A stretch of DNA of 64,000 nucleotides from Candidatus Latescibacterota bacterium (GCA_965200315.1 OZ241362.1:5088001-5152000), one strand, 5' to 3'; shown: positions 1-19,023, counted from the first letter of the stretch. Made by a program: numbers and translations. Notes: a model not told the origin generated them from the letters alone.

Positions 1-435
1 GGCGAGCTTGGCGCGTACGCCAGTGGCGCGATCTCTCTCGAACAGCACTTTGAGGACCCGGGCACCCTGATGCACGTGGGCACCTTTTGCGCGGGCGTTG
101 TCGAGGAGCATCGCGTCGAATGGGCCGCGCAAGACCTGCCATGTTATGGCGCTTTCGTGGGGGTTGGTGTCGGAAAAGTAAAAGGGCGTTGAGCCGCGAC
201 CCGACTTGCCGAAAAACTGCACGCTGTGCTTGCGGGGAAAGGCGCTGTCTTTGAGCCGGTCGAGCACGCCGAGCCGTTTGAACGTCCAGTAGGTCTCCGG
301 CATCAGGGACTCGCCGATTGCGAAGCGGGGAAACTGCTCGCGCTCGAAGAGCTGGACTTGGCGGCCGGTTGCAGCGACGAGGGCGGCTACGGTGCTGCCG
401 GCCGGGCCACCGCCGATGACGATGACGTCGCTCAC
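1..435 (-). CDS. FAD-dependent oxidoreductase, flavin halogenase-like (CmlS/PltA-like); partial, runs off window edge
   Basis: Not in the ORF track; manual translation from GTG at 435 (GTGA overlap with upstream stop): MSDVIVIGGGPAGSTVAALVAATGRQVQLFEREQFPRFAIGESLMPETYW...WQVLRGPFDAMLLDNARAKGA. GxGxxG FAD motif plus FPRFxIGESL signature. Confidence 0.8.
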   Translation of the reverse strand, partial: MSDVIVIGGGPAGSTVAALVAATGRQVQLFEREQFPRFAIGESLMPETYWTFKRLGVLDRLKDSAFPRKHSVQFFGKSGRGSTPFYFSDTNPHESAITWQVLRGPFDAMLLDNARAKGAHVHQGARVLKVLFERDRATGVRAKLA

Positions 436-1709
436 GGGTAGGTCCGGTGATCGGTGACGCGCCGGGCTTTGAGTTCAAAGCGCGGCAGGGTGTTCGGCGC
501 GGCGATTTGGATGGCGGTGCGCAGGCCCAGCCGGTGGGCGAGGGCACGTGCTACTTGGTCGGCCGTGTCGTCGGCATGGCCGTTGAGCTCTAGGCGCACC
601 TCCAACTCGTCGAGTGCGTTGCGCCGGTGGATGTCAACGGCGAATTCGGTCACTGTAGGGAACTGGCGCACTACGTTTTCGATGGCACTGGGATAGACGA
701 CCACGCCGCGGATGAGCAACGCGTCGTCGAGGCGGCCGATGACGCCACCTTGGAGCCGCTGGAAGGTGCGCCCGCAAGCACAGGGCGCGCGATTGAGGGC
801 GACGCGGTCGCCGGTGCGGTAGCGGATAACCGGCATCCCGGTGCGGCCGAGATTGGTGATGACCAGCTCGCCCGCGTCGGCGGGTGCGCCGCTTTGCGGA
901 TCGACGATCTCGCAGATGAACTCGCCCTCGTTGAGGTGCAAGCCGGCCTGTTTGTCGCAGTCAAAACCCCAAGCGCCGACCTCGGTGGCCCCGGCGTGGT
1001 CAAAGCAGCGGGCACCCCAAGTGCGTTCGAGTTGGGAGCGGGTAGCGGGGAGGTTTGCGCCCGGCTCGCCCGCGTGGATGGTGGTGTGTACGCTGCTGGC
1101 GGCGAGGTCGATGCCGCGTTCGCGGGCGACTTCGCCTAGGTGCAAGGCATACGTTGGTGTACAGACGAGGACGGTGATTTCGTTCTCGACGATGGCGTCT
1201 AGGCGCTGCGCCGAAGACATGCCACCGCCGGGGACTATTAGTGCGCCGATGTGGCTAGCGCCTTGGTGCCCGCTCCAGAAGCCGATGAAGGGGCCAAAGG
1301 AGAAGGCGAAAAAGATGCGGTCGCGGTCGCCGACGCCAGCGGCGCGATAGACTTGGGCCCAGCAGCAGCCCCACCAGCCCCAGCTCTCGGCTGTGTCGAG
1401 CCAGCGCAGACGCTGGCCGGTGGTGCCGGAGGTCTGGTGGATGCGGGTGTAGCATTCGGGCGGATAGGTGAGGTTGGTGCCATAGGGAGGATGGGCTATT
1501 TGGTCGGCAGAGAGTTCGGCGCGCGTGGTAAAGGGGAGGCGGGCCAAGTCGCTGAGCGCGGCGATGTCTTCGGCCTGCGTGATCCCGACCGCGTTGAGCT
1601 TCTGGCGGTAAAATGCGTTGGTCGCCAGCACTTGGCCCAGCAGGATGTGCAAGCGTTGGAGTTGGTGCTCGGCCAGCGCGTCGCGGCTGAGATGTTCGCC
1701 GGCACTCAC
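432..1709 (-). CDS. Phenylacetate-CoA ligase (PaaK)-like AMP-forming acyl-CoA ligase
   Basis: Motifs LPFTTRAEL, QTSGTTG, HAGEPG, DHAGATE, GELVITNL, IRYRTGD, GRLDD..IRGVVVYPSAIE, C-terminal KARRVTD. Confidence 0.85.
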   Translation of the reverse strand: MSAGEHLSRDALAEHQLQRLHILLGQVLATNAFYRQKLNAVGITQAEDIAALSDLARLPFTTRAELSADQIAHPPYGTNLTYPPECYTRIHQTSGTTGQRLRWLDTAESWGWWGCCWAQVYRAAGVGDRDRIFFAFSFGPFIGFWSGHQGASHIGALIVPGGGMSSAQRLDAIVENEITVLVCTPTYALHLGEVARERGIDLAASSVHTTIHAGEPGANLPATRSQLERTWGARCFDHAGATEVGAWGFDCDKQAGLHLNEGEFICEIVDPQSGAPADAGELVITNLGRTGMPVIRYRTGDRVALNRAPCACGRTFQRLQGGVIGRLDDALLIRGVVVYPSAIENVVRQFPTVTEFAVDIHRRNALDELEVRLELNGHADDTADQVARALAHRLGLRTAIQIAAPNTLPRFELKARRVTDHRTYP

Positions 1710-3841
1710 AGCGAATAACCCAAGGTTGCCTTAAAGGAGAACGGGGCCGCCGGGATGACCGAGGCGGCGCCAAACCCTCGGGTCTCGTATTCGCTGCTGG
1801 TCGCGTTCTTGAGGTTTATCCGCAGCAGCCCCGGCCCCTGCCGGTAAGTCAGCCCGCAGTCGAGCGTCAGGGCACCGTCGATCTCATAGACATTGTCCTC
1901 GGCCACGAACTGATTGCCTACGTAACGGATGCCGGTGGCCAAGGTGAGGTTTTCGCCCAAATCGCGGGCGGCCCACAGCGTCAGGAGGTGTGCGGGCGCG
2001 AAGGCTGGCACATTGCCCGTGCGGTCGAAGATTTGGGGGACGAAGCCAGTGGTGGTGGGGATCAGCACGGATTCGCTGAAGCGCGTCAGCTCGGCGTCTA
2101 AAAAGGCATAGGTGCCTTGGGCGTACCAGCCGTGGGCCAGACGCGCTGCCAATTCCAACTCCAAACCCCGGGTGCGCTGGTCGCCGAGTTGCTGGGTGAT
2201 GCCGTTGTCGTCGGGGATGGCGATGTGCTCTTTGTCGAGGTTAAAGACGGCGAGGTTGGCGCTGAGGTTGCCGTTGAGCAGCGCGGCTTTGGCACCGATT
2301 TCGTACTGGGTGCTTTCTTCGGGGTCGCGGTCGCCGACGACTTGAGCAGAAGGCGGGGCAAAGGCGCGGCCCGTATTGGCGTAGAGCGAGAGGGTCTGAG
2401 TGGGAGCGAAGACTGCGCCGAGCATCGGGCTTAGCTGCCGGTACTCGCGCTTAGTGGCAGTGAGCGCGTCCTCGTAGTCGATCCGGTCGAAGCGGCCCCC
2501 GAACAAAAGCTCAAAGTGAGGGCTGAAAATTATGCGATCGACAAAGTAGGGGGCGAGGGATTGGGCGGCGGTTTGGCCGGCCGTCGCTTGGTCGGGGAGG
2601 GGGACCACGAGAGAGTCGGTCCCGGCTTCTGCTGGCATGGAGGGGGCCAAACTCGGCGGCAACGTCGAGTCGAGCGTGAACAGATCGACGAACGAAAGCA
2701 ACGCCACGTCGAGAGTAAAGTCATCCGCGTGGCGGGCGATTTCCAAGCCAAAGAGCAGTTGATGCTCGATACCGCCGGTTTGCAATTTTAGCAGCCCTTC
2801 GAGTTGGTTGCCGACGATCCACTGCTGGTCGTCTAGGTTGAGCAACGTGCGGGCGAGATTAAGCGAACCGGCCGCGTTGGGAAAGGCCCCGTTGAAGAGG
2901 GTCCCCTGCGAGGGCCAGTCGAGGCTGGTGTAGTAGAGTTTGTCGCGCAAGGTGAAATTAGGCGCTAGATGCCATTCGTAATCAGCGCGAAAGCGCCGGA
3001 TGGTCTGTTCGGAAAGATCGAAGGGCGACTGGTATGAGCGGGTGCGTGGCACATCGGGCAGTGTGCCGCCGACGATGGGCAGCCCCGAGTCAGAGCGATG
3101 TTCGCTCGCCAAGTACTCGAAGTCGAGGTGTAGTGTCGAGCGCTCGCCGAGGGCCAACCGCAGCGTTGGGTTTACGGCGACGATCGAGCTGTTTTTGTCG
3201 TCTCGGTAGCTTTCCGCATCTTGCCACAGGGCGTTGAGACGAAAAGCGAGACCTTGGTCTGGCAGGGCGCGGGCGGCATCGAGGGTGGCGCGGTAAGTGG
3301 AGAAGCTCCCTAAGGAAGCGTTGACGCGGGCGAAATCGCTTGCCGGGTCTGGCCGTTTGCGGACCAGGCTGATGGTGCCCGACAGCGGGTTGCCGCCGTA
3401 GAGGAAGGCACCGGGGCCTTTGAGGGCTTCGACGCGAGCAACATTGTAGAGCTGGTAGAAGGTCGCTTCGGGTTCGGGCACTCCGTCGGAGAGGACCAAG
3501 CCGTTGGCGAGCGAGTCGAAGCCACGCAAATAGAACAGGTCGTGGACGCCAAAGTTGGTGTGGACGCCGACGCCGCTGACATTGGCTAGCGCGTCGCTGA
3601 GGGTTGCGCCGTCTTGAGTTTCGATAAGGGCTTGGGGGACGATCCCGACGCTCAAGGGGGTCTTGTGCAGGGGCAGCGGCATTTTGGTGGCGATGGCGTT
3701 GGCGCGGGGGATGGCCAGTCGCGAGCCGGTGACAATGGTCTCGCCGACGACGTGGAGTGAGTCGTCGGCGCTCTGAGCATGGGCGAAGGTTGCCGTCAGC
3801 GATAAGGCAAAAATTAGCAGCGCACCGGACAGATTTCTCAT
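1706..3841 (-). CDS. TonB-dependent outer membrane receptor (siderophore receptor-like)
   Basis: Signal peptide, TonB-box-like ETIVTG, plug motifs TPLSVGIV, ALANVSGV, LRGF, RVEALKGPGAFLYG, barrel ending GYSL. Confidence 0.9.
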   Translation of the reverse strand: MRNLSGALLIFALSLTATFAHAQSADDSLHVVGETIVTGSRLAIPRANAIATKMPLPLHKTPLSVGIVPQALIETQDGATLSDALANVSGVGVHTNFGVHDLFYLRGFDSLANGLVLSDGVPEPEATFYQLYNVARVEALKGPGAFLYGGNPLSGTISLVRKRPDPASDFARVNASLGSFSTYRATLDAARALPDQGLAFRLNALWQDAESYRDDKNSSIVAVNPTLRLALGERSTLHLDFEYLASEHRSDSGLPIVGGTLPDVPRTRSYQSPFDLSEQTIRRFRADYEWHLAPNFTLRDKLYYTSLDWPSQGTLFNGAFPNAAGSLNLARTLLNLDDQQWIVGNQLEGLLKLQTGGIEHQLLFGLEIARHADDFTLDVALLSFVDLFTLDSTLPPSLAPSMPAEAGTDSLVVPLPDQATAGQTAAQSLAPYFVDRIIFSPHFELLFGGRFDRIDYEDALTATKREYRQLSPMLGAVFAPTQTLSLYANTGRAFAPPSAQVVGDRDPEESTQYEIGAKAALLNGNLSANLAVFNLDKEHIAIPDDNGITQQLGDQRTRGLELELAARLAHGWYAQGTYAFLDAELTRFSESVLIPTTTGFVPQIFDRTGNVPAFAPAHLLTLWAARDLGENLTLATGIRYVGNQFVAEDNVYEIDGALTLDCGLTYRQGPGLLRINLKNATSSEYETRGFGAASVIPAAPFSFKATLGYSL

Positions 3842-5082
3842 TGGGCCACTCCCACTATGTTTATGCGGACGATTTCCTTATCGTCGCGGAGGTAAATCCC
3901 ACCGTCGGCGAGCGAGGGGACGGTCCCACATCTGCTGCGGCGGAAGATTGGGATATTGGCCTTTTCGACGAAGCCTGCGGGTGTGGCTTTAGCTATGCCG
4001 AGAAGACAGCGTTCACCCAAGATGACGAGGTGGCCGTCGGCGATGATCAAGGTGCCCTTGCCGTAGCCGCGGGTCTTCCACTTTTCCTCGCCGGTCTCGG
4101 CGTCGAGGCATTTGAGGGTCGAGCCGTCAAAACCGTAGAGGTATCCCTGGTAGTAGATGGAGGTGGCGGAGTGGTTTTGCATGTTATGATTGCGCCAGAC
4201 CTCGGCCACTTCATAGCCCTTGTCTGTGGCTGTGACTTCTACCACAGTGCCGCCCAGACCCTCGCTGGAGGAGATAAAGAAGCGATTAGGCGAGATAAAA
4301 ACCGGGGTGGCAAGGCTGATGTGTTGGGGAGTTATATAGGGATATTTCCACAGCACTCGGCCATTTTGCGGCGCGACCGCGATCAGCCCGTAGCCGGTGA
4401 AAAATACCGCCTGGCGCGTTTGGCCGATGGTGGCGATGATGGGAGAGGAATTTCCTCTCTCATCGCTGCCGGTTTTCCAGGCGACCTCGCCACTGGTTTT
4501 GTCAAAGGCTATCAGCGCATGGCCACTCTTACTGCCCGCTTCGATTAAGACGCGGTCTCCTTCGACTAGCGGCGACGATCCAAAGCCCCGACCGGCCCTG
4601 ATGCCGTCGAACTCGAGCACTATATTGCGGCTCCAGCGTTGAGTGCCGAACTGGCTGTCGAATGCGTGGAGCTTGCCATGGGAGCTGAAGACATAGACCA
4701 TCTTGCCGTCAACCGTGGGGGTGGCACGCGGATTGCCGCCGCGCGATTCCGAGGGATCGTTGCCGGTGGTGCGAGTGCGCCACATCAATTCGCCATTGCG
4801 GGCGTCGAGACAGACTGCGTATTCGTCCCCACTGTAGATGTACATTGTATAGAGGCGATTGCCGACTACGGACAGACCCGAAAAGCCCAGCCCGGCATGG
4901 ACGCGCCAAGACTCTTTAAAAGATGGTGCTTTGCCGAACAGACCCGTCTCTGACGATATGCCATTGCGGTGGGGGCCGAGCCATTGCGGCCAGCCCGTCC
5001 ATTGCCAGTGCGACCAATTTTGGGCCAAGGCCGGCAGGGTGCCTAAGACGAGGGCGAACAGGGCGGTGCCTAAGGTGCTCAC
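3838..5082 (-). CDS. Secreted PQQ-binding-like (BamB-family) beta-propeller protein, paralog A
   Basis: Signal peptide, WPQWLGP motif, repeated xxDxxTGxxxW blades; GTGA/ATGA overlaps with neighbours. Confidence 0.85.
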   Translation of the reverse strand: MSTLGTALFALVLGTLPALAQNWSHWQWTGWPQWLGPHRNGISSETGLFGKAPSFKESWRVHAGLGFSGLSVVGNRLYTMYIYSGDEYAVCLDARNGELMWRTRTTGNDPSESRGGNPRATPTVDGKMVYVFSSHGKLHAFDSQFGTQRWSRNIVLEFDGIRAGRGFGSSPLVEGDRVLIEAGSKSGHALIAFDKTSGEVAWKTGSDERGNSSPIIATIGQTRQAVFFTGYGLIAVAPQNGRVLWKYPYITPQHISLATPVFISPNRFFISSSEGLGGTVVEVTATDKGYEVAEVWRNHNMQNHSATSIYYQGYLYGFDGSTLKCLDAETGEEKWKTRGYGKGTLIIADGHLVILGERCLLGIAKATPAGFVEKANIPIFRRSRCGTVPSLADGGIYLRDDKEIVRINIVGVAQ

Positions 5083-6320
5083 TGGGCCGTTCCTTGTATA
5101 GTGAGGCAGACGATTTCCTTATCATCTCGGAGGTACAGCCGGCCATCGGCGAGTGAGGGGGCCGTCCAGCATTTGCTGTGGAGGATTTGGGTGTTCGCCT
5201 TTTCGACGAAGCCTGCGGGCGTAGCTTCGGCTAGGCCGAGATTGCCGCGTTCGCCCAAGATGACGAGGTGGTCGTCGGCCGCGAGCAAGGTGCCCTTGCC
5301 GTAGCCCCGAGCCTTCCACTTTTCCGCGCCGGTCTCGGCGTCGAGGCACTTGAGGATCGAGCCGTCAAAACCGTAGAGATGCCCCTCATAGTAGATGGAG
5401 GTGGCGAAGTGATTTTCCATCTCTTTGTTGCGCCAGACCTCTGCCACCGCATAGCGCCCATCTGTGGCGGAGACCTCCACCACACTGGCACCCGTGCCGT
5501 AGCCGGAGGATATAAAGAAGCGGTTGGGCGGGATGAAGACCGGGGTGGCGGCGTTGACTTCGTGCCTAGTCGTCCAAGGGTGTTTCCACAGCACTTGGCC
5601 GTGTTGCGGCGCGACCGAGATTAGCCCGTTGCCGGTGAAAAACACCGCTTGGCGCGTTTGGCCGATGGTGGTGGTGATGGGAGAGGAATAGCCCAGTTTG
5701 TCGCTGCCGGTTTTCCAGGCGACGTCGCCACTTTTTTTGTCAAAGGCTATCAGCGAATGACCGCCCCTACCGCCGGCTTCGATTAGGACTAGGTCTCCTG
5801 CGACTAGGGGCGACGGGCAAAAGCCCCAGCGGGCCTTCTTGCTGCCGAATTCGCTTACTAGGTCGTGGCTCCATTGTTGCGCTCCGGTTTGGCTGTCGAG
5901 TGCGTAGAGTTTGCCATAGGCGCTAGAGACATAGACCATCCCGTCGTCCACAGTGGGGGTGGCACGCGGGCCGTCGCCGCCTTGCCGTTCCATTAACATA
6001 CCGTCAGTGCGGGTGCGCCACAGCACTTGGCCATTGCTGGCGTCGAGGCAGACTGCGTATTCATCCCCGCTGTGGATGTACATCGTATAGATGCGATTGC
6101 CGACGATGGACAGGCCGGAAAAGCCCTTGCCGCCTTGGATGCGCCAAGATTCTTCAAATGACGGCTCGTCGCCGAATAGGCCGGTTTCTGGCGAGATGCC
6201 GTTGCGGTCGGGGCCGAGCCATTGCGGCCAGCCCGCCCCTTGCCAGCGCGACCAGTCTTGGGCCAAGGTTGGCAAGGCGGATAAGGCGAGGGCTAACAGG
6301 GCGCTGCGTGTGATGCTCAT
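5079..6320 (-). CDS. Secreted PQQ-binding-like beta-propeller protein, paralog B
   Basis: WPQWLGPDRNG, PRATPTV, YSSP, CLDAETGAEKWK, WTAPSLA. Confidence 0.85.
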   Translation of the reverse strand: MSITRSALLALALSALPTLAQDWSRWQGAGWPQWLGPDRNGISPETGLFGDEPSFEESWRIQGGKGFSGLSIVGNRIYTMYIHSGDEYAVCLDASNGQVLWRTRTDGMLMERQGGDGPRATPTVDDGMVYVSSAYGKLYALDSQTGAQQWSHDLVSEFGSKKARWGFCPSPLVAGDLVLIEAGGRGGHSLIAFDKKSGDVAWKTGSDKLGYSSPITTTIGQTRQAVFFTGNGLISVAPQHGQVLWKHPWTTRHEVNAATPVFIPPNRFFISSGYGTGASVVEVSATDGRYAVAEVWRNKEMENHFATSIYYEGHLYGFDGSILKCLDAETGAEKWKARGYGKGTLLAADDHLVILGERGNLGLAEATPAGFVEKANTQILHSKCWTAPSLADGRLYLRDDKEIVCLTIQGTAQ

Positions 6321-7564
6321 TGGGCTATTCCTTGCACTTTGAGACAGATGATCTCGCTTTCGTCGCGCATGTAGAGGCGGCCATTGGCCAGCGAAGGGGC
6401 CGTCCAGCAGCGGCTGTTGAAGGCTGGGTAGCTGGCCTTTTCGACAAAGCCTTCCGGCGTGGCTTCGGCTAGGCCGAGATTGCCTTGTTCACCCAACAGG
6501 ATGAGGTGGCTGTCGGCGACGATCAGGGAGCCTTTGCCGTAGCCTCGGGTCTTCCACTTTTCCGCGCCGGTCTCGGCATCGAGGCACTTGAGGATCGAGT
6601 TGTCAAAGCCGTAGAGATGATTCTCGTAGAGGATCGAGGTGCCAAAGTGGTTTTTCATCTTTTTGTTTTGCCAGACCTGCTCGACGGCGAGGCTGTCGCC
6701 GTCGCTCTTGATTTGCAAGACTGCGCCGCCGTTGCCGTCGCCGGTGGAGATGAAAAGTCGGTCGGGCGCGATGAAAACTGGGGTCGCCGCGCTGACGTCG
6801 TAGCGGGTCTTCCAGGGGTAGCGCCAGTAAATGCGGCCGTCTTCCGGCGCTAGGCCGGTAAGCGAATAAGCCGTGAAGTAGGCGAGTTGGCGGGTGCCGG
6901 CTGCGGTGAAGGCGATGGGCGATGAATAGCTCATCTTTTCGTTGAGGGCGGTCCAAGCGGTTGCGCCGGTGTTCTTGTCGAGGGCTACGGCGGTGACCTC
7001 GGTTGTGCGGTCGATGGCCATATCGACGACGAAGTTGCCGTTGTGGCCGCCTGCTTCGACTAGGAGTAGGTCGCCCTCTACAAGCGGGGAGGTACTAAAC
7101 CCCCACCTAGGCACTTGGCTGCTGAACTCGGCGACCAAATCCTTTTCCCAGATCGGCTCACCACTCGCGGCTGCGAGTGCGAACAGCTTGCCGGTGGCAC
7201 CGAGTACATAGACGACTTCGCTCTCGACGGTGGGCGTGGAGCGCGGACCGTCGCCGCCTTGGGTTTCCTTGTAGTAAGGGCCGGTGCGGTGACGCCAGAG
7301 TTCTGCGCCGGTTTGGTCATCGAGGCAGATGACGAACTCGTCGTCGCCTTGGGCGAACATGGTGAAGAGCCGGCCGTCGGCAACGGCGATGCCGGAGAAG
7401 CCATTGCCAAGCGGGACGCGCCACGCTTCTGCAAAAGGCTGCTCGGTGGTGAAGAGGTCGGTTTCGCTGGAGATGCCGTCGCGCTGGGGGCCGCGCCACT
7501 GAGGCCAGTCGGCCGCCTGTGCAACAGCGGTCAGGAACAGCAAAAGTGAGATCGCGCTTTTCAA
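6317..7564 (-). CDS. Secreted PQQ-binding-like beta-propeller protein, paralog C
   Basis: ADWPQWRGPQRDG after signal peptide; TTG start with AGGAG Shine-Dalgarno; same blade motifs. Confidence 0.85.
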   Translation of the reverse strand: MKSAISLLLFLTAVAQAADWPQWRGPQRDGISSETDLFTTEQPFAEAWRVPLGNGFSGIAVADGRLFTMFAQGDDEFVICLDDQTGAELWRHRTGPYYKETQGGDGPRSTPTVESEVVYVLGATGKLFALAAASGEPIWEKDLVAEFSSQVPRWGFSTSPLVEGDLLLVEAGGHNGNFVVDMAIDRTTEVTAVALDKNTGATAWTALNEKMSYSSPIAFTAAGTRQLAYFTAYSLTGLAPEDGRIYWRYPWKTRYDVSAATPVFIAPDRLFISTGDGNGGAVLQIKSDGDSLAVEQVWQNKKMKNHFGTSILYENHLYGFDNSILKCLDAETGAEKWKTRGYGKGSLIVADSHLILLGEQGNLGLAEATPEGFVEKASYPAFNSRCWTAPSLANGRLYMRDESEIICLKVQGIAQ

Positions 7565-7577
7565 TGGTACCTCCTAC

Positions 7578-10539: not shown

Positions 10540-11646
10540 TCAAAACGCCGTCTCGTATAGCCGCAGGAAGTCCGCTTCTTGCAAAGGAAGCGGGTTGAAG
10601 GTGCCGGTCCACTGCCCGGCCGCTTCTCGGGCCATGATGGGTAAATCGCTTGCGGCGACCTGACAAGCGGCGAGTCGGCGCGGTAGCCCGGCTACAGCAC
10701 ACAGTTCTTCGAGATGGGCGGCGAGTGCGCGGGCACTGCCCTTGAGCTGGATGTCCGCGCACAGTTCGCCGTATAGACCGTCCACCACTTGGCCATTCAA
10801 GCGAATTACGTGCGGCAGCATCAGGGCCACGGCGCGACCGTGGGTGAGCGGGTAGCGGGCGGTGAGCGGGTTGGCGGTGGCGTGGGCGGCACCGAGCATG
10901 GAGTTTTCGATGGCCGTGCCGGCTAGGTGAGCACCTAAAAGCATGGCGTCGTCGTCTTTCCCGTAGTGGGGTGCTAACAGCCGCCAAGCTTGGCGGGCGA
11001 ACATTTGCGACAGCGGCGTCCGGCGGGTGGAGACGTAGCTTTCGACGGCGTGGGCGAGGGCGTCGATACCGGCGTCGGTGCGGACGCGCTGGGGGACGCT
11101 GGCCAGTACATCTGGGTCGAGGATGGCGATGTGGAAACGCGCTTTGCGGTCGCCGCAGGCCATTTTGGCCCCTGTGTCGCCGCAGGTAATTAGGGCGTAG
11201 GATTGGGCCTCGCTGCCCGTTCCGGCTGTGGTCGGAACGCCGATGGAGGGGAGCATGGGCAGGGGGGCTTTGCTGTAGCCTTGGTAATCCTGCATTTGGC
11301 CGCCGTTGGTCAGCAGGAAATTGATGCCCTTGGCGCAGTCCATCGCGCTGCCGCCGCCCAAGGCGACGATTAGATCAATGGGGCCGTGGGCGCGGGCGTG
11401 GCGGACGCCAGCGGCTACGTGTTTGGTGGTGGGGTTTTCTCCTACGGCGGAGAAAATAGTCGTCGTTAAGCCGGCATTTTGTAGCGCGTGGTGGGCCTGT
11501 TCGGCGAGGCCGGCTTGGACGAGGCCGGGGTCGGTTACGAGCAGGGCGTGGGGGCCGGCCAATGCCTTGGCCAAGTCGCCTAGCTGATCGAGGGTTCCGG
11601 CGCCAAAGACTACGCGGATAGACGGATCAAAGTCGAAGGGAGTCAT
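10540..11646 (-). CDS. Iron-containing alcohol dehydrogenase
   Basis: VFGAG, LLVTDPG, ENPT, GGGSAMDCAK, PTTAGTGSE, DALAHAVESY, LGAAH, HGRAVA. Confidence 0.92.
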   Translation of the reverse strand: MTPFDFDPSIRVVFGAGTLDQLGDLAKALAGPHALLVTDPGLVQAGLAEQAHHALQNAGLTTTIFSAVGENPTTKHVAAGVRHARAHGPIDLIVALGGGSAMDCAKGINFLLTNGGQMQDYQGYSKAPLPMLPSIGVPTTAGTGSEAQSYALITCGDTGAKMACGDRKARFHIAILDPDVLASVPQRVRTDAGIDALAHAVESYVSTRRTPLSQMFARQAWRLLAPHYGKDDDAMLLGAHLAGTAIENSMLGAAHATANPLTARYPLTHGRAVALMLPHVIRLNGQVVDGLYGELCADIQLKGSARALAAHLEELCAVAGLPRRLAACQVAASDLPIMAREAAGQWTGTFNPLPLQEADFLRLYETAF

Positions 11647-13037
11647 CCGGCCCGGCGCTGCAAGGCGCGCTGCTGGTAGAGGAAGTCGAAGAGATTGCCC
11701 TCGTGCGGCTGGTCCCAGGCTATTTGGTGGGTGGGGATCGGGCCGAGGTTGAGGCGTTCAATGTGGGGCGCGGCGAGCAGTTGGCGCGTTAGGTGCTCGT
11801 CCGCGGTGAGGGCGGTGGCTACCAGCGTCGGGCCGATTTGCGCGACTACTTCTTCTGGCGGGATTTCGACGACCGCGGCGAAGGGGAAGAGGTATTCGGT
11901 GTTGGCGAGTGGGTGTTGCCAGTCGGGGGCGTGGATTAAGGTTGGGTTGAGGAAGGTGCAGCCGCCGGTCTCGGCGATGCGTTCGCCTTGGTCTCTGGCC
12001 GTGTCTGTCGCGGCACCGAGTTGGGAGTCGATTAGGGATGAGACCTGGTGTGCTACTGAGGGGTTGGAGAAGGCGGCGATTTGGGCTTGGGGGTCGTCGA
12101 GGGGGCGGGCTTGGATTTGGCTCAGGCGTTCGCCGAGGGCGGCGGCGATGGCACCACCGTGGGCGGGCACCCAGATGCCAGAAGCATTGAGGCAGGAGCG
12201 GCCCCCATTGGAAGCGATTGAGGCGACCATGAGGTCGAGGTAGTGCTCCCACTGGTCGATTTTGTCTGCGCCGATGATGATCTTGCTGCGCCCTGGTCCG
12301 TGTAGTTGGACGCGAGGGTCGTCGCGCCAAGGGGCGACGGTAGGACCGCCGCCGAATAGTAGCGAGCGATCGCAGCGGAGCAGGATTTCGGTGCTGCCGC
12401 CGTGGTCGGTCGGGTAGTAGCTCAGGGCTTGGGGTGGACAGCCGGCTGCGATCAGGGATTGGGCGATGCGGTAGGGCGTCCACGGCTCTTCGCGGCCTGG
12501 CTTGAGCACTAGCGGGATTTTGAGTGGGATGGCTGGCAGCCACAGCGCGTGGACGCCGGGTGAGTTGCTGGGCAGGATGCAGCCGAGGGCTTGGGCGTGG
12601 GACGCGAAGTGGAGCGGACTTGGGCCGTCGTCGAGAATGGTCAAGTCCAAACCTCGGGTCAGGCCGCTGAGCACGGCGGGCATTTCGCGGCCGACGCGGT
12701 GGATTTTGTCCATGTTGGCGCGGGCAAGCGACTGCGGCAGGCCGGTGGTGGCCGAGACTTGCGCGACGTAGTCGTCCGGGGTTTGGCTGTCGTCGCCTAA
12801 AGGCAGTTCGGCGCGCAAGAAGAGGTCCGCGGCCCGTTGGCAGATGGCGACCAACTCGGCGACGGTGAGGGCTTGCAGTGCTTGGCGGTTGCGCTCTTGG
12901 GCAGCCAAGTCGCGGGCGATCAGGCCGCGGTTGGCTTGGCTGACTTGCGCGAGAGGTTGGCCGGTGGCGATGTGGGCGACAGCGAGGCGGTCGAGGCTGG
13001 TGTAGGGCTGGCCGGCGCGGAGGATGGGTAGGTGCAT
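11643..13037 (-). CDS. Aldehyde dehydrogenase superfamily protein (EhpG/LuxC-like acyl reductase)
   Basis: PSNSPGVH, LKPGREEPWTP, FGGG, HGPGRSK, GGRSCLNAS (catalytic Cys), EYLFPF; probable start MHLPILRAG at 13037. Confidence 0.8.
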   Translation of the reverse strand: MHLPILRAGQPYTSLDRLAVAHIATGQPLAQVSQANRGLIARDLAAQERNRQALQALTVAELVAICQRAADLFLRAELPLGDDSQTPDDYVAQVSATTGLPQSLARANMDKIHRVGREMPAVLSGLTRGLDLTILDDGPSPLHFASHAQALGCILPSNSPGVHALWLPAIPLKIPLVLKPGREEPWTPYRIAQSLIAAGCPPQALSYYPTDHGGSTEILLRCDRSLLFGGGPTVAPWRDDPRVQLHGPGRSKIIIGADKIDQWEHYLDLMVASIASNGGRSCLNASGIWVPAHGGAIAAALGERLSQIQARPLDDPQAQIAAFSNPSVAHQVSSLIDSQLGAATDTARDQGERIAETGGCTFLNPTLIHAPDWQHPLANTEYLFPFAAVVEIPPEEVVAQIGPTLVATALTADEHLTRQLLAAPHIERLNLGPIPTHQIAWDQPHEGNLFDFLYQQRALQRRAG

Positions 13038-13259
13038 GAGTTTGGATTTGGGGTTAGAGTTGGAGTGAGTCTTTGCGATCTGCAATCTATAATCTGCAAG
13101 AGTTTGGGGTAGCGGAAAAGGTGTCGTTTTCAGATCGAATTATACTGGGAACGGGGCGACGCTCTGCCAGAGGGTTCGCATTTATGTTTACTATGCGTTT
13201 CAGGTTAGTCGTCTTAGCTGCCATCTCGCGAATCAATTCCTAGACCGCGCGGCTGCACA

Positions 13260-13560: not shown

Positions 13561-13580
13561 GTACAACGGGATATCCCAAC

Positions 13581-13856: not shown

Positions 13857-14375
13857 TTTTACCTACTCCTTTCTTGTAACCTTCTGCTGCTTTATTCTGT
13901 CCAATGGCTTCAGGTGAAATTCGGCCGCTCTCCACAAGAAGAGTGAAGTGAGCCAGAACGTCTAAAGCCTGCCAGAGAATTTTAGTAAACACATCACGCA
14001 AACTCTGACTCTCAATGCCAAAATCCTTAGCAATTTTTCGATAGTTACTGCCATCCCAACATCTTGGCTTGCGACAGCCTTTCTTGATCCAATTCAATAC
14101 TCATAACTATCTCTCTTCAAGAAGAATTTCTAACCCCAGTGATATATCCAATGTTTCTTATCACTTACACCCGGTCAGGAATGGCTACAGTGGCAGGTGG
14201 GATTGGCTATTTACCTGCTCAGCTACTGGTGTCGTGTTGTTGTAGTGGTATAGTTTGAAATTTAAGAATGGTGCAGACAAAAGCCCGATATCGACGAGTA
14301 TTAGAGCTTTCACAAAAACTCTTGATAATCCATTGCGCATCCCTCTCGATATGACTTCATCATAGAGTACACGCC

Positions 14376-15446
14376 TCAGTACACCCCCACCACCACAGAC
14401 TCCTGCAACTCAGTCAGCAAGCGCAAATTTTTAACCCCATCCCAAGGATACACGTCGATCGGCGCGGTGCGTTCGGCCTCGTCGCGTTCGAGGAAGCGGG
14501 GCATGAAAAACTCCTTGGTCAGGGTCGTGAGCATGACTTGGCCGGTCTCGCCGTAGCCGACCTTGCGCGCGGGGGCTTGGGGATCAACTAGTTCGATGAC
14601 GGCGCGCGGCTGCGGCGGGTAGTAAGTGATGGCGTACTCGTCGGCCGGGTCAAAGGGCTTGGGGCAGGCCAGGCCCATCAAGGTGTTGCCGTAGGTGGGC
14701 ACAAAGGCGAGGCCGGGCACCAACTCCTCGCGGGCGAAGCGGTGGAACTGGGCGTTCATTTCCGTGCCGCCGCAGAAGATGCCCTTAATGCCGAGCTTGA
14801 GCAGGGAGACTTTTTCGCAGAGCGCTTCGAGGAGCCGGGGGGTGGTGAAGACGCACTGTACGTTGTCGTGGGCCTTGAGAATTTTGAGTGCCTGATCGAC
14901 GACATGGGCTTTGTAGTCTTCCAACTCGCGCATCTGGCCGGCGCGGATGAGTTCGTTGACCCAGCGCGGGTCGAGATCCACCATAAAGCACAAGCCACCG
15001 CGTAGCTGGGCGAGGTACTCGATGGCGAGGCGCAAGCGGCGCGGCCCCGAAGGCCCCAGCATCAGCCAGTCGGCCCCTTTGGGAAAACCCTCTTCGGACA
15101 AACTTTCGCTGTAGAGCGCGTAGTCGGTGTGGAAGTCGCGGATGTTGATGCGGTATTTGGGCAAGCCGGTCGAGCCGCCGGTCTCGAAGACGTAGATCGG
15201 CTCGTCGGCGTAGGCTTTGGGCACCCACTGGCGCACCGGGCCGCCGCGCAGCCACTCGTCCTCAAAGTGGCCGAGCAGGGCCAAGTCGGCGTAGGAGCGG
15301 ATTTGCTCGCGTGGGTCGAAGTCGAGCCGCTGTGCGTAGGAAAGCCAAAACGGGCAGCCAGTCTCGGGGCTGAAGTGCCACTCGACGATGGCGCGGACGT
15401 GAGCGTCGAGGTCGTCGCGGGCAGCGGCGATTTTGTCCGCGCTCAT
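14376..15446 (-). CDS. EhpF-like atypical adenylating enzyme (ANL superfamily)
   Basis: Real start MSADKI at 15446 (ATGA overlap); WHFSPETGCPFWL, FETGGSTGLPK, DLDPRWV, GGTEM, YGNTLMG, YYPPQP, GQVMLTTL..EFFMPRFLERD resemble the EhpF/EsmD2 family. Confidence 0.75.
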   Translation of the reverse strand: MSADKIAAARDDLDAHVRAIVEWHFSPETGCPFWLSYAQRLDFDPREQIRSYADLALLGHFEDEWLRGGPVRQWVPKAYADEPIYVFETGGSTGLPKYRINIRDFHTDYALYSESLSEEGFPKGADWLMLGPSGPRRLRLAIEYLAQLRGGLCFMVDLDPRWVNELIRAGQMRELEDYKAHVVDQALKILKAHDNVQCVFTTPRLLEALCEKVSLLKLGIKGIFCGGTEMNAQFHRFAREELVPGLAFVPTYGNTLMGLACPKPFDPADEYAITYYPPQPRAVIELVDPQAPARKVGYGETGQVMLTTLTKEFFMPRFLERDEAERTAPIDVYPWDGVKNLRLLTELQESVVVGVY

Positions 15447-16864
15447 TGGCTTTCTTCCGCGATGGCGAAGAGGGTGTTGCGCGAGGCGATGTAGAGGACG
15501 CCGTCGCGGGCGACCGGAGTGGTGTACACGGCGCTGCCCAGATTGGTTTCGTGGAGTAATTCGAGCGTTGTGCCGGCCTTGAGTATATCGACGTCGCCGT
15601 CCTCGTCGCCGATATAGACCTTGCCGTCGGCGACAAAGGGCGAGCCCCAGATCGCGGCGAACGTGTCGTGGGTCCAGTGGTGGGTGCCGGTTTGGGCGTC
15701 GAGGCAATAGACGAAGCCGCTCAGGTCGGCGGCGTAGAGCAGGCCATCGGCGATGGCGACTGTGGAGATGGTGCGGTTGTAGTTTTTGTCGCCGAAGTGC
15801 CAGATTGCGCCCGTCGCGGTGATGTCGCCGCTGCCGCTGGCGTCGATGGCCCACAGGTGGCCCTCGCCTTCGCCGTGCTCGGGGTCTTGGCCAACGCCGA
15901 TATAGACTATGCCGTCGTGGAAGACGGGCGTGGAGACGAGGTTGTTGCGGGTGCCGCGGCCACCTAATTCCCAGACCGAACCCTTGGGGTTGCAGTCGAA
16001 TTTCCACAGTAGTGCGCCGGTGTCGGGCGCGAAGGCATAGACCCAGCCGTCGCCGCCGGGGAAAATTACCTGCTTGCGGCCACCGGCCTCGCCGTAGGCG
16101 GGGTTGGACCACTGGCCGTGCAGAATCTGGTCACCGGGCAGGGCGCTGTCCCAGAGGAGGCTGCCGGTCTGCATGTCGAGGGCGATGAAGCTGGGGGCAA
16201 AGGGGGCCGGGATGTGGACGTGGCCCTCGTCCACGCCGTTGCTGGTTAGGGCGAAGAGCCGGCCATCGACGCCCAGCGGCGAGCTGGTGGCGAGGTTGTG
16301 GGGGAAGACGTCCAGCTCGGCGATCATGTCGAATTTCCAGATGAGATCCGCGTTGGTGGGCGCGGTGGCGGCTTCGTCGGCGATGGGGCCGTCGTTCTCG
16401 CCATCGCGGAAGCCTTCGGTGTCGAGACAGACGACTTCGGCGCGGTTGGAGACATAGTAGAGGCGGTCGCCTTCGATATAAGGGGTGGAACAGACGCCCT
16501 GTTGCGGCCAGTCGTTGACGCGGCCAGCCGGCAGCTTGGGATGGGCGATTTGCCACAGGAAAGCACCGTCCTCTAAGGAAAAGGCCATCACCACGCCGCG
16601 GTCGCCCTTGTGGTTGGGGTCGCGCTCGGCTTGGTTGTTGGTGCCGACGAAAATTTTGTCGCCGGCGATCAGGGGGCCGGCGTAAGTCTGCGAGCCGAGC
16701 GTGGCGCGCCACTTGACGTTTGTGCCGCTGGCGGTGTCCCAAGTGGTGGGTAGGTTTTGCTCGTCCGAGACTTGGTTGCGCCCGGGCGAGCCGCCCCACA
16801 TGGCGGTTTGGGCACTGACGGAGGCGGTTAGGGCGAGGATGAGGCAAATAGCGATAGTCATCAC
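15443..16864 (-). CDS. Secreted PQQ-like beta-propeller protein
   Basis: Signal peptide, MWGGSPGRN, LPTTWD..NVKW, CSTP, blade repeats ending in W; acidic loop GFRDGENDGP. Confidence 0.85.
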   Translation of the reverse strand: MMTIAICLILALTASVSAQTAMWGGSPGRNQVSDEQNLPTTWDTASGTNVKWRATLGSQTYAGPLIAGDKIFVGTNNQAERDPNHKGDRGVVMAFSLEDGAFLWQIAHPKLPAGRVNDWPQQGVCSTPYIEGDRLYYVSNRAEVVCLDTEGFRDGENDGPIADEAATAPTNADLIWKFDMIAELDVFPHNLATSSPLGVDGRLFALTSNGVDEGHVHIPAPFAPSFIALDMQTGSLLWDSALPGDQILHGQWSNPAYGEAGGRKQVIFPGGDGWVYAFAPDTGALLWKFDCNPKGSVWELGGRGTRNNLVSTPVFHDGIVYIGVGQDPEHGEGEGHLWAIDASGSGDITATGAIWHFGDKNYNRTISTVAIADGLLYAADLSGFVYCLDAQTGTHHWTHDTFAAIWGSPFVADGKVYIGDEDGDVDILKAGTTLELLHETNLGSAVYTTPVARDGVLYIASRNTLFAIAEESQ

Positions 16865-19023
16865 CAAACTTTCAGGTTGTCGTAGTAGATTTCAGCGGGA
16901 GAATAGCCGTAGAGTCCGGGGCTGCCGCTGCGGTTGGGCAGGGGATCGACCGCTTGGATGCTCCACGCGGCTGGCTCTGGCTCGTCGCGGGGCCAGACCT
17001 TGCCGCGGATGTAGGCCATATCGCCTTTGAGTTCCACCTGGATCTTCACGGTGTACCAGACGCCGGTTTCCCAAGCAAAGGGCACGGTTTTGGCCATCCG
17101 CAGCTCGGCGGCCCAAGTGCGAATCTGCAACTGCTGATGGTAGCCCATCAGGTCAAGGGTGTAGCGATTGGCGATCAGGCCCATGTCGGGGACGGCGCGG
17201 CGCTTCTTGGTGCCGAGCAGGTCGGCTTGGATGGTGTAGCCGGTCATGGTGGGCGCACCGAGGTAGGTGTTGGCGCGGTGCAGGCCGCGGGCGGCGGGTG
17301 GCTTGACCAACACCTTGTTGCCTTCCATTTCGCGCACCTTGAATTTGGTGCCTGTGCCGATCCAAGCTGGCGAGGCGTCAACGGTGAAACCCTCGAAGTC
17401 TTCGCTGTAGGTTGGCGGCGGCAGCACGGCGATGCGCGCCTCGGCAGTCAATTCGCCGGCGCTGGCGACGATTTTGCCACCGCTCGGTGCGTCTGCGAGG
17501 ACAAGCGTATTGCCGTCGAGTTGGCCAACTGGACCGGCGAGTGTCCATTCGGCTGAGGCCGGGCCAATTAGGCGGCCGTCTGCGTCGAAGGTTCGGGCGC
17601 GGAACAGCACGCGGGCCCCGGGCTGAGCTACGACTTCGGCGGGAATGATTTGCAGGTGCGCCGGTGTTGCGCTTGGGGCAGCTTGCGCGCGTGGGTAGCT
17701 CGCTGCGGTCGCGGCGACCTCGAACCTCGCCGCTGGATCGCCGAGGCAGTAAACGCCCGCTTCGGTGGCAAGGTAGATGTGGCCGTAGGCTACGGCAGGC
17801 GAGCCGAACAGTTCGGCCGGGCGTCCGTCGGGCATGGCAATCTCGGCGAGGTCGAGGGTCTCGGCGGCGGTGCTGTCAGGGGCGACGATGACAAAGCGGC
17901 CGTTGACCTCTGGCGCGTAGAGCCGGCCGTCGGCCAGCACAGGCGATCCCTTGCCGACGGTGCCGATGTTGTGGACCCAGTGGACTTGGCCGGTCTCGGC
18001 GTCGAGTGCGTGGATGTTGGCCGAGTTGTCGATGAGGTACAAGCGGCCGTCGTGGACGACCGGGCTACTGTAACCGGCGAAGACGCCATCGTAGCGCCAG
18101 ACCTCGTGGGTGTTCGCAACGTCGCCTTGGCCCGTGGCGTCGATGCACACGACGCGGCCGAGGGCGGTGTTGTCGAGGTTTTCCTCGCTGTGGGCTGCGT
18201 ACACCTTGTCGCCCGCGACGACGACCGAAGAGTTGATGCCGCGCCGACTCAGCTTGAAGCCCCACACCGTCTCGCCGGTGCGGATTTTCATGGCATAGAT
18301 GGCGCCGTCGGCGTTGCCGCCGATGAGCAGGCGGACGCCGTTGATGGTGGCGACGACGGGGACTGAGTACGTGGTGTCGAGCGGCCGGCCCCCCGGGGTG
18401 GCGATCCAGACGACTGCGCCGCTGCGCTTGTCAAAGGCGAAGTAGCGATGGCGGCCCGGCGTGTGCTGGCCCCAATTGGAGCTGAGATAGCTGATGATGA
18501 CGAGGTCTTCATCGACGACGGGCGTGTGGACGCGGCCGCCGTAGCCGGAGATGCGCCCGAATTCCTCGGTCAGCGAGCGCGACCATATTACCTTGCCGTC
18601 GCGGTCAAAGCAAAAGAACAGTCCGCTGACCGTGTGGGCATAGACATAGCCGGTCTCTGGGTCGCCGGCGAGGCTGGCCCAGCCGACGCGATTGAAGGGG
18701 ATGGTGGTGTGGAAGATGTTGTAGGCGTGTTCCCAGAGCAGGGTGCCGTCTTGGGCGTCAAAGGCGGCCACAACGCCCTCTTCCGCGATGTCCTCGCCGC
18801 GGCGACCGATGACGAATACTCGTCCGTCGAGGACGATGGGGGTCGAGCGGCTGGTGAATTCGGCGTGCCAGACCGGCGACCAGGATGCGACGAGGCCGGT
18901 CTCTTCGGAGACGCCGTTTTGCGCTGGGCCGCGCCAAGAGGGCCAGTCGGCTGGGTAGGCGCTGGAAACGGCGAACAGGAGGCCAAGAAAGGCATGGGGA
19001 AGTTGCAGGCGGAGATTGGGCAC
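16861..19023 (-). CDS. Secreted PQQ-like beta-propeller with C-terminal Ig-like and beta-sandwich domains
   Basis: GTG at 19023 with AAGGA Shine-Dalgarno; ADWPSWRGP; blades; then LQIIPAEV..FRARTFDADG (Ig-like) and YSEDFE...WYTVK..RGKVWPRDEPEPAAW..GSPGLYG..YYDNLKV (concanavalin/LamG-like). Confidence 0.8.
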   Translation of the reverse strand: MPNLRLQLPHAFLGLLFAVSSAYPADWPSWRGPAQNGVSEETGLVASWSPVWHAEFTSRSTPIVLDGRVFVIGRRGEDIAEEGVVAAFDAQDGTLLWEHAYNIFHTTIPFNRVGWASLAGDPETGYVYAHTVSGLFFCFDRDGKVIWSRSLTEEFGRISGYGGRVHTPVVDEDLVIISYLSSNWGQHTPGRHRYFAFDKRSGAVVWIATPGGRPLDTTYSVPVVATINGVRLLIGGNADGAIYAMKIRTGETVWGFKLSRRGINSSVVVAGDKVYAAHSEENLDNTALGRVVCIDATGQGDVANTHEVWRYDGVFAGYSSPVVHDGRLYLIDNSANIHALDAETGQVHWVHNIGTVGKGSPVLADGRLYAPEVNGRFVIVAPDSTAAETLDLAEIAMPDGRPAELFGSPAVAYGHIYLATEAGVYCLGDPAARFEVAATAASYPRAQAAPSATPAHLQIIPAEVVAQPGARVLFRARTFDADGRLIGPASAEWTLAGPVGQLDGNTLVLADAPSGGKIVASAGELTAEARIAVLPPPTYSEDFEGFTVDASPAWIGTGTKFKVREMEGNKVLVKPPAARGLHRANTYLGAPTMTGYTIQADLLGTKKRRAVPDMGLIANRYTLDLMGYHQQLQIRTWAAELRMAKTVPFAWETGVWYTVKIQVELKGDMAYIRGKVWPRDEPEPAAWSIQAVDPLPNRSGSPGLYGYSPAEIYYDNLKVW

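Follow-up and report, generated by a model that had tools for sequence, protein, structure and literature searches.

A conserved system of about 20 genes in Latescibacterota and other phyla that may tailor a small aromatic acid for dedicated periplasmic propellers

Few unexplained protein families are as common in Acidobacteriota, Latescibacterota, Poribacteria and their relatives as the secreted propellers of the pyrroloquinoline quinone (PQQ)-like type. Here we analyze a stretch of 64,000 nucleotides from Candidatus Latescibacterota bacterium (GCA_965200315.1 OZ241362.1:5088001-5152000), referred to as the window, whose first 19,023 nucleotides hold a cluster of thirteen genes, G01 to G13. 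Six of the genes encode secreted propellers, and the others encode two adenylating enzymes (G03 and G12), an aldehyde dehydrogenase (ALDH)-fold protein (G04), an iron-containing alcohol dehydrogenase (G05), a radical S-adenosylmethionine (SAM) enzyme (G07), a TonB-dependent receptor (G11) and a flavin-dependent halogenase-family enzyme (G13). The thirteen genes are about two thirds of a system of about 20 genes that is inherited together across phyla. We propose that a small aromatic carboxylic acid is tailored by cytoplasmic enzymes of the system and then passed on to dedicated periplasmic propellers, a tentative reading to which we give somewhat less than an even chance. A fixed set of propellers tied to defined enzymes and transporters makes their function experimentally testable.

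Gene content, gene order, co-inheritance and sequence motifs are direct observations. All 13 of the 13 genes lie on the minus strand of positions 1 to 19,023, as judged by open reading frame (ORF) listing and translation, and nine overlaps of 4 nt join start and stop codons, reading ATGA or GTGA on the coding strand (432-435, 1706-1709, 3838-3841, 5079-5082, 6317-6320, 8948-8951, 11643-11646, 15443-15446 and 16861-16864). An earlier interpretation of the same DNA, made without database searches (the sequence-only reading), had placed the co-oriented genes and the overlaps at exactly these positions, and the families it assigned to the genes have all been borne out by Pfam, NCBIfam and PDB sequence searches, the basis of the family calls given below. 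Signal peptides were recognized by eye as hydrophobic N-termini.

The case for a single system rests first on synteny. Relatives of G03 occur at no fewer than 591 genome loci (of 600 candidate places) in contigs representing one genome per species, and the best 80 of these at least 591 loci, among which G03 is 68-95% identical, were used for comparison of gene order; their labels include Latescibacterota, Gemmatimonadota, Poribacteria, Calditrichia, Acidobacteriota and others. G03, G04, G05 and G07 have the same order and strand in 23 of the 23 loci that hold all four, and these loci span Latescibacterota, Poribacteria, Calditrichia and Acidobacteriota. Upstream of G03, G01 is found in 57 and G02 in 56 of the 71 loci with at least 5 kb of sequence on that side. 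Downstream, 59 loci have at least 9.9 kb, and they hold G04 in 52 cases, G05 in 29, G06 in 23, G07 in 22, the receptor in 13, G13 in 7 and G12 in 3. The low counts of the distal genes are explained by lineage insertions that exceed the 10-kb flank and by the splitting of many acidobacterial sets. In all five genomes with split clusters, orthologues of the radical SAM enzyme (52-59% identity) and of the halogenase (43-53%) are found elsewhere. Four of the five such regions examined are flanked by other members of the system (halogenase, PaaK, propellers, receptor, symporter or glycosyltransferase genes); in the fifth (locus L085), no other system member was found beside the radical SAM gene.

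Co-occurrence at the genome level extends the argument to loci without physical linkage. Among 151 genomes of the window's own phylum, G03 is present in 83, G07 in 82 and both in 81 (81 of the 84 carriers), the three discordant genomes, with G03 or G07 alone, being 81-86% complete. Orthologues of the family 4 glycosyltransferase (GT4) described below, with at least 46% identity, occur in 79 of these genomes, all of them positive for G03, and five non-carriers have relatives of only 33-37%. In 121 genomes of Acidobacteriota, G03 occurs in 27, G07 in 27 and both in 25 (25 of the 29 carriers, one of which is the unpublished genome G204); several of these G03 and G07 pairs lie 0.1-2.7 Mb apart on one contig. 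Related genomes are non-independent samples. Two phyla nevertheless agree in this pattern, whether or not the genes are physically linked, which is strong evidence for one function, and the expectation of the sequence-only reading that the enzyme genes would prove to be conserved together across phyla is upheld. We argue from the cross-phylum conservation that the role is physiological rather than niche-specific.

Some lineages add genes of their own. In Poribacteria loci (L012-L031 and L060), a 231-234-aa protein with a weak, propeller-like Vgb_lyase match precedes G04 in 18 loci, and sulfatase and M19 peptidase genes often follow G04. These three were considered as core members and set aside as insertions specific to Poribacteria. 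A search of 85 loci and the window for small ORFs (20-120 aa) conserved across phyla gave none, a search that shorter or fast-evolving peptides would escape; the small-ORF families that did appear were shadows of Poribacteria genes only.

The continuation to the left of position 1, to which the sequence-only reading had pointed, was followed over 20 kb, and the system runs on for about 15 kb of it. The remainder of G13 is followed, in order, by an AAA/PDDEXK_9 gene, a sodium:solute symporter (SSF), the GT4 glycosyltransferase, a DUF4143 ATPase, a LysR regulator, a short adenylosuccinate-synthetase-like gene, a small membrane protein of four to five helices, a LolD/YbbA-like ATP-binding cassette (ABC) ATPase, a 1085-aa duplicated FtsX permease and a seventh propeller. 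Orthologues of the symporter, GT4, small membrane protein, ATPase, permease and seventh propeller stand beside system genes in other phyla, with identities of 59-81% for SSF, 44-55% for GT4, 52-59% for the ABC ATPase and 37-40% for FtsX. This retention is why we count about 20 genes in the system and regard it as interrupted by insertions here. For the adenylosuccinate-synthetase-like, LysR, AAA/PDDEXK_9 and DUF4143 genes, no orthologues were found beside system genes elsewhere, apart from weak DUF4143 matches of 22-25%. The adenylosuccinate-synthetase-like gene, which lies amid system genes left of the window (L002 10869-11888, minus strand), encodes 339 aa and stays below the PurA model cut-offs; it reaches 126 bits for PurZ against a cut-off of 300.

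The symporter, GT4 and ABC pair on the left move the picture toward glycosylation and hand-over in the envelope. The ABC ATPase scores 243.8 bits with the LolD model (cut-off 307.75) and 222.7 bits with YbbA, below the curated cut-offs throughout. The permease of the window's genome is matched twice by FtsX, with no match to MacB_PCD, and the orthologues at loci L079 and L083 do match MacB_PCD; permease lengths run from 1064 to 1165 residues. The pair resembles the type VII ABC systems, which act with periplasmic partner proteins according to the available text of one source (PMC12646458). No adaptor or outer-membrane duct gene adjoins the pair in the loci examined, and a propeller gene adjoins the FtsX permease both here and in Acidobacteriota. 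At L083, a major facilitator superfamily (MFS) transporter takes the place of SSF. Facing the exterior, G11 (1706..3841, minus strand) is a TonB-dependent receptor of the siderophore-receptor subfamily (plug 62 bits, barrel 158.5 bits), which passes the TIGR01783 model for TonB-dependent siderophore receptors at 252.2 bits (cut-off 223.5). In other phyla its orthologues, 41-73% identical, occupy the corresponding position of the operon.

The most informative part of the cytoplasmic set is the pair G03 and G04. G03 (14376..15446, minus strand) is an EhpF-like, single-domain adenylating enzyme of 356 aa. It aligns with the EhpF structures 3l2k and 3hgu at an E value of 2.8e-45, query residues 7-356 lying on chain residues 14-366 of 366, and like EhpF it is without the C-terminal ANL domain. 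It is 67-94% identical across 24 orthologues from several phyla, and a search of the ESM Atlas returned only clusters labeled 'AMP-binding enzyme'. The acid-to-alcohol reduction in griseoluteic acid is assigned to EhpF and EhpG, EhpF serving reduction rather than CoA ligation. G04 (11643..13037, minus strand) is the EhpG counterpart, a divergent ALDH-fold protein (Aldedh 51.7 bits), whose start is probably the ATG at 13037, where the orthologue consensus begins. All 25 sequences compared keep its catalytic Cys298, and the Glu in the LEAGGKS of the aligned ALDH 5iuu gives way to His262. A retained Cys with the Glu replaced by His suits a thioester-reducing ALDH and not a hydrolytic one. G05 (10540..11646, minus strand), the iron-containing alcohol dehydrogenase (Fe-ADH 156.2 and ADH_Fe_C 107.2 bits), falls below every NCBIfam equivalog cut-off, with ErcA the best at 244.7 bits against 550.

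A complex of G03 with G04 is predicted, with scores of 0.79, 0.77 and 0.80 in three runs as against 0.00 in all three controls. The runs share at least 59% of their contacts, the predicted local distance difference test score (pLDDT) of the partner is 88 or higher, and many of the predicted interface residues are invariant columns. The mark used for these scores is reached by 58 of 80 solved complexes and by 2 of 110 mismatched pairs, rates that are approximate here because our own alignments were used; the score expresses confidence in the model and not binding. No solved complex of this type is known to us, which makes it unlikely that the prediction merely reproduces a structure already seen in training. 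G04 is likely the reductase partner of G03, as the prediction and the proximity of their genes suggest.

A second group of enzymes is encoded at the other end of the window's share of the system. G12 (432..1709, minus strand) is an aryl-acid CoA ligase of the PaaK family with an AMP-binding_C_2 domain; it scores 261.9 and 232.4 bits with PaaK models whose cut-offs are 700 and 646, which makes it a family member and not an equivalog, and it matches phenylacetate-CoA ligases in the PDB at E values of 1e-56 to 1e-51. The gene overlaps by GTGA with G13 (1..435, minus strand), of which the window holds the first 145 codons, the rest of the 418-aa protein lying left of the window edge. G13 is a halogenase-family enzyme (Trp_halogenase 105.8 bits) in which GxGxxG, Lys68, WxWxIP and FxxPxxSxG, motifs as generally defined for flavin-dependent halogenases, are conserved in the window protein and five orthologues. 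Halogenases or halogenase-like flavoproteins, most of them of the short type, make up its ten best PDB matches (E values of 7e-65 to 2e-34). Short halogenases such as PltA, Bmp2-like enzymes, CndH and CmlS act on substrates tethered to a carrier or to CoA. G13 also matches, more weakly, flavoproteins that hydroxylate peptidyl-Trp (QhpG 145.8 bits, cut-off 240; LodB 106.6). In one Calditrichia genome, a gene for a 4HBT hotdog thioesterase lies between the halogenase and PaaK genes, and this arrangement together with the G12-G13 overlap suggests activation, halogenation of the thioester and then release.

G07 (7578..8951, minus strand) is a HemN-like class C radical SAM enzyme (Radical_SAM 75 and HemN_C 33.3 bits) with CxxxCxxC and GGGTP invariant in 21 orthologues. 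Its relatives in the PDB are HemN (1olt) and the methyltransferase NocN, and its scores remain under the cut-offs for HemN (196.8 against 325), HemW (155.8 against 205), ChuW-HutW (195.9 against 400) and STM4012 (188.1 against 380). A role in heme uptake or degradation, with a ChuW/HutW-like enzyme and the receptor, was considered and rejected, given that G07 falls short of the cut-off for HutW and heme genes were otherwise not seen. One acidobacterial orthologue (G170:C24:116675-117976) has two in-frame stops, TGA and TAA, and may be a decaying copy. Taken together, the families found are consistent with the series 'activate, reduce, methylate, flavin-modify' that the sequence-only reading had proposed for the cytoplasmic enzymes.

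The propellers comprise distinct single orthologues and a tandem set. G01 (16861..19023, minus strand) is a secreted eight-bladed propeller of 720 aa with an added C-terminal domain (PQQ_2 148.9 bits). G02 (15443..16864, minus strand; PQQ_2 94.9 bits), which overlaps G01 by GTGA and G03 by ATGA, is the best conserved of the set. G06 (8948..10033, minus strand) is a compact, BamB-like secreted propeller (Beta-prop_ACSF4 220.6 bits, cut-off 133; PQQ_2 149.1 bits); it probably starts at the ATG at 10033, as the upstream ATG and a hydrophobic N-terminus by eye indicate, and its orthologues directly follow G05 in other phyla. These three and the left-hand propeller are 23-27% identical to one another, or to G08, in the pairs compared, and each has orthologues across phyla. 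The tandem set is G08 (6317..7564; PQQ_2 110.1 bits), a secreted propeller of the DWPQWRGP type, G09 (5079..6320; PQQ_2 161 bits) and G10 (3838..5082; PQQ_2 135.3 bits), tandem paralogues on the minus strand that are 49-69% identical (G08/G09 55%, G09/G10 69%). These tandem copies are recent, and the number of G08-type genes varies from 0 to 3 between loci.

PQQ_2 matches occur in 14 ORFs of the window's genome, 7 of them inside the system. The heavy expansion that the sequence-only reading gave for such propellers in Planctomycetes, Acidobacteria and related lineages does not apply to this genome. The expectation of that reading that propeller number would follow the presence of the cluster does hold. 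Strong PQQ_2 matches have a median of 8 (minimum 4) in the 83 carriers and a median of 1 in the 68 non-carriers, and a non-carrier with 10 such matches is an incomplete genome that holds G07. The count tracks the cluster because the cluster itself brings propellers. A fixed, ancient set of orthologues is what would be expected of components of a pathway or transport route and not of a client repertoire. The propeller pattern thus fits dedicated pathway or transport components better than clients.

Two of the fixed propellers have features that may bear on a ligand. The C-terminal 253 aa of G01 are modeled at a pLDDT of 93.5 as an Ig-like sandwich and a concanavalin-A-like jelly roll, for which the best folds are the lectin domains of galactocerebrosidase and sialidase, GH16 and CBM66, at template modeling (TM) scores of 0.45-0.55; this predicted lectin-like fold would be in keeping with a glycosylated ligand. 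G02 shares 61-94% identity with 24 orthologues and has more than 130 invariant columns, including 210-216, 325-337 and 421-425. Many of them are His, Asp and Glu in loops between blade strands two and three, which by the usual propeller topology would lie on the active-site face. The G02 model (pLDDT 82.9) finds BamB, tetrathionate hydrolase and PQQ-dependent alcohol dehydrogenase as best folds without distinction, and the fold search was dropped as a functional lead, its matches being generic eight-bladed propellers only.

The cluster carries traces of insertion, and its neighborhood in the window is mixed. Foreign inserted ORFs occupy the gaps at 13038-14375 and 10034-10539. In the first of these, a 120-codon remnant of a second TonB-dependent receptor (13204-13566, plus strand, within an ORF at 13315-13803) is 79% identical to residues 9-129 of a 712-aa receptor; the sister genomes L004 and L006 carry this receptor whole, on the opposite strand, between G03 and G04. 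The spacer measures 1.3 kb here as against 4-6 kb in these two genomes, which marks it as a hot spot of insertion and decay. The same spacer holds a 91-aa ORF (13581-13856, minus strand) that looks by eye like a ribbon-helix-helix antitoxin. In the second gap, a 116-aa ORF with a DSGA motif (10123-10473, plus strand), which resembles by eye a retropepsin-type aspartic protease, separates G05 and G06 on the opposite strand; G05 and G06 abut in other phyla. Divergent from G01 is a DUF362 gene (19079-20362, plus strand) with 86-95% identity in seven close relatives; as a neighbor of the cluster it is found only in these closest relatives (7 loci), and it was not found in other phyla. Beyond it, positions 20322-32152 have a low GC content (0.39-0.55, compared with about 0.61 in the cluster) and hold defense-type genes, namely a SNF2/PLD helicase of 1130 aa, an Eco57I-type methylase of 1268 aa, two AAA_15/AAA_21 ATPases and an ApeA HEPN protein. 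To the right of this defense island, positions 33770-42655 carry genes for an enolase-superfamily enzyme, a sulfatase, a DUF6785/DUF6784 membrane protein and an arylsulfotransferase. Two metatranscriptome libraries of a single study yield contigs over all 30 bins of positions 1-20000, intergenic gaps included, in pieces of up to 5.3 kb (13709-18974) and 4.2 kb (3902-8102), and the same positions are also present in sponge-metagenome DNA runs.

From these components we infer a substrate, an order of steps, a destination and a role for the propellers. An aryl-acetate-type acid would be present in the cell, perhaps taken up through G11 and the SSF permease; receptor and symporter may import either the precursor or the product. 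G12 would form the CoA thioester of the acid, which G13, as an enzyme of the short, tethered-substrate type, would halogenate, and G07 would add a methyl group or perform related radical chemistry. Within the predicted complex, G03 would adenylate the carboxylate and transfer it to the Cys of G04, which would reduce it to the aldehyde, and G05 would carry the reduction on to the alcohol. GT4 would then glycosylate the product, which would reach the outer face of the inner membrane by way of the small membrane protein and the type VII ABC pair, a machine without an adaptor. At that face it would be received, processed or passed on by a fixed set of at least four distinct orthologous propellers (G01, G02, G06 and the neighbor of FtsX), among them G01 with its lectin-like domain and G02 with its enzyme-like acidic and histidine loops, and the G08-G10 type would vary in number.

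A more specific version describes an envelope system, so far unrecognized, in at least four phylum-level groups, in which a halogenated aryl glycoside is the obligatory ligand of the periplasmic propellers, either as a prosthetic group or as a metal-delivering ligand. The ABC machine without an adaptor would deliver the glycoside and the TonB-dependent receptor would recover it. We regard this version as unlikely, and the chance that a categorically new ligand or cofactor system of propellers is involved seems to us similarly small. If it were true, the large 'PQQ-like' propeller families known from Acidobacteriota, Latescibacterota, Poribacteria and related bacteria would receive a function for the first time.

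Several observations weigh against the proposal that an aromatic acid is tailored and handed to the propellers. Flanks of 10 kb hold G07 in only 22 of 59 loci and G13 in 7 of 59, and the linkage of the two halves of the cluster depends mainly on co-occurrence among related genomes. No scaffold-forming enzyme (polyketide synthase, nonribosomal peptide synthetase (NRPS) or chorismate enzyme) was found in the loci examined, and with neither such an enzyme nor a precursor peptide the substrate is a guess. Two carboxylate-activating enzymes are awkward for one small molecule, the order of steps is taken from family names only, and the thioesterase was found in a single lineage. A receptor of the siderophore subfamily would point to import of a secreted product and not of a precursor. 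The lectin-fold matches of G01 are weak at TM 0.45-0.55, and the propeller folds are best matched by the scaffold protein BamB; any catalysis or ligand binding by the propellers is putative. Finally, the coverage in RNA libraries speaks for presence only, DNA carry-over being possible since intergenic gaps are covered as well.

The receptor leads directly to the explanation that competes best. The system could make a secreted metallophore or another diffusible halogenated metabolite, with the ABC pair aiding export and G11 with SSF or MFS re-importing the product or its metal complex; the propellers would then be periplasmic maturation enzymes or the metalloproteins that are served. Pyoverdine production runs along such lines. 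The score of G11 above the TIGR01783 cut-off (252.2 against 223.5) agrees with this, as does the retention in several phyla of a receptor with a single-component permease, including the exchange of SSF for MFS at L083. The invariant His, Asp and Glu loops of G02 could bind metal, and clusters of this sort are classed with natural-product clusters in the text of a recent preprint (10.64898/2026.08.03.742642). Yet no enzyme for a usual chelating group was found, and no adaptor or outer-membrane duct gene adjoins the ABC pair. The gene set is fixed and G03 is 58-95% identical across phyla, whereas clusters for specialized metabolites are usually variable. The system also occurs alike in sponge symbionts and in soil-associated acidobacterial metagenome-assembled genomes, habitats being taken from record titles only. 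On balance a diffusible metabolite is an improbable account, though one to be taken seriously.

The sequence-only reading itself held that the enzymes build a new PQQ-like redox cofactor, with the propellers as its carriers or client enzymes. The propellers are indeed members of the quinoprotein-related PQQ_2 superfamily and are strictly co-inherited with the enzymes, G03 evolves slowly in the manner of cofactor genes, and the invariant loops of G02, modeled with low confidence, may need a ligand to fold. The genome, 94.7% complete, gave no match to PqqC (TIGR02111), a weak negative since the control was silent in 14 genomes, and its best match to PqqE (TIGR02109), at 60.3 bits against a cut-off of 381, lies outside the cluster; these results would agree with a cofactor other than PQQ, the silence of the control making the absence of PqqC a weak point in its favor. 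The status of the propellers as carriers or clients, however, is not supported in the form proposed: at least four ancient and distinct orthologous groups travel with the enzymes and 7 of the 14 PQQ_2 ORFs are in the system, a fixed set within the cluster in place of a variable client repertoire. They are compact proteins of BamB size that reach 33-72 bits with the quinoprotein dehydrogenase model TIGR03075 (cut-off 480) and 19-37 bits with TIGR03074 (cut-off 833). The cluster showed no gene for a cytochrome or another electron acceptor, and known cofactor pathways offer no counterpart to GT4, the lectin-like domain or the type VII ABC pair. The sequence-only reading is supported in part, and its cofactor idea persists as a minority reading that we consider quite unlikely.

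Less probable again, and in our view very unlikely, is the uptake and catabolism or salvage of an external aromatic, in which the propellers attack a polymer or conjugate and the product is imported, oxidized and activated. A receptor, a permease, alcohol and aldehyde dehydrogenases and a CoA ligase are a common catabolic set, a PaaK-family ligase with a sodium:solute symporter is reminiscent of how pseudomonads take up and activate phenylacetate, and a sulfatase and an arylsulfotransferase are among the neighboring genes of the window. Against it, G04 is without the Glu of hydrolytic ALDHs, G03 is of the EhpF type, which serves reduction and not CoA ligation, and a halogenase with intact motifs, GT4 and an exporter-type ABC pair are anabolic; no genes for ring cleavage or beta-oxidation were found in the loci examined. 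That the genes are unrelated neighbors is hardly credible: foreign insertions in two intergenic gaps and the interruption or splitting of the set in many loci would suit that view, but the order is kept in 23 of 23 loci with the four marker genes, the genes co-occur at the genome level in two phyla, and nine translational overlaps join them. The probability left over by all these readings belongs to something else.

The sequence-only reading had named a match to a characterized pathway as an outcome that would count against it, and no such match was found among the systems that bear comparison. The closest relative of the reductase module is the D-alanylgriseoluteic acid (phenazine) cluster of Pantoea agglomerans Eh1087. 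G03 aligns end to end with its EhpF, and the gene beside ehpF in a phenazine operon, ehpG, belongs to the ALDH family according to the available text of one source (PMC11278526), just as G04 lies near G03. Griseoluteic acid bears a 6-hydroxymethyl group, which fits an acid-to-alcohol reduction (the available text of PMC12380601). Unlike its counterpart in the Eh1087 cluster, the pair here is linked to a receptor, to propellers and to a type VII ABC pair, and instead of being confined to an antibiotic cluster it shows 58-95% identity across phyla. Membership in a phenazine pathway was rejected: PhzA/B (PF03284) has no match in the window's genome, a weak negative in that the control was silent in all 14 genomes, and no phz-like genes were seen in the cluster.

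The PQQ system (pqqABCDE, the dehydrogenases and PqqU) has in common with this one its eight-bladed propellers, which come from one superfamily, a radical SAM enzyme, and a TonB-dependent receptor located close to cofactor-related genes. It differs in that the radical SAM enzyme here is HemN-like and not of the PqqE type, and G11 scores 51 bits with PqqU (cut-off 1200). With neither PqqC nor a precursor peptide found, PqqE matches below the cut-off and the propellers below the quinoprotein models, membership in a PQQ pathway was likewise rejected. Among type VII ABC systems (LolCDE-LolA, YbbAP-TesA and MacAB-TolC), the ATPase is closest to LolD and YbbA, and LolCDE and YbbAP likewise have no adaptor gene nearby. 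In the system described here, the gene for a periplasmic protein directly beside the pair encodes a propeller, an arrangement known from sequence alone, and to our knowledge a propeller as the partner of a type VII ABC system has no precedent. The logic of pyoverdine production is also similar, with synthesis in the cytoplasm, maturation proteins in the periplasm, a MacB-type ABC component and a TonB-dependent receptor for the product. The pyoverdine route differs in that there is no NRPS here, the periplasmic proteins are non-homologous and no chelating group can be predicted.

The nearest description of the cluster as a whole, and the only relevant text on this cluster type that we found, is a preprint on sponge microbiomes, which in its text defines an orphan pseudoclass, 'Halo_AMP', by a flavin-dependent halogenase with an AMP-binding enzyme and reports such clusters from Acidobacteriota, Latescibacterota and Poribacteria (Loureiro et al., bioRxiv 2026, 10.64898/2026.08.03.742642). 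PQQ-like domains, radical SAM enzymes, TonB-dependent transporters, glycosyltransferases and toxin-antitoxin genes are said there to be frequent, and no product is named in that text. G13 with G12 and G03 falls under the Halo_AMP definition as given there. The statement of the sequence-only reading that it knew of no described pathway with such a composition needs a qualification, since the preprint defines the cluster class. The case it treats in detail, CC A, has P450s and the present cluster has none. The text does not contain the present architecture, which its figures and supplementary tables may show, nor does it contain co-inheritance across phyla, an EhpF/EhpG module or a type VII ABC part. 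As far as that text goes, the cluster type had already been noticed, and what is new here is its extent, its co-inheritance across phyla, the predicted EhpF/EhpG-like complex, the link to a type VII ABC pair and the fixed set of propellers.

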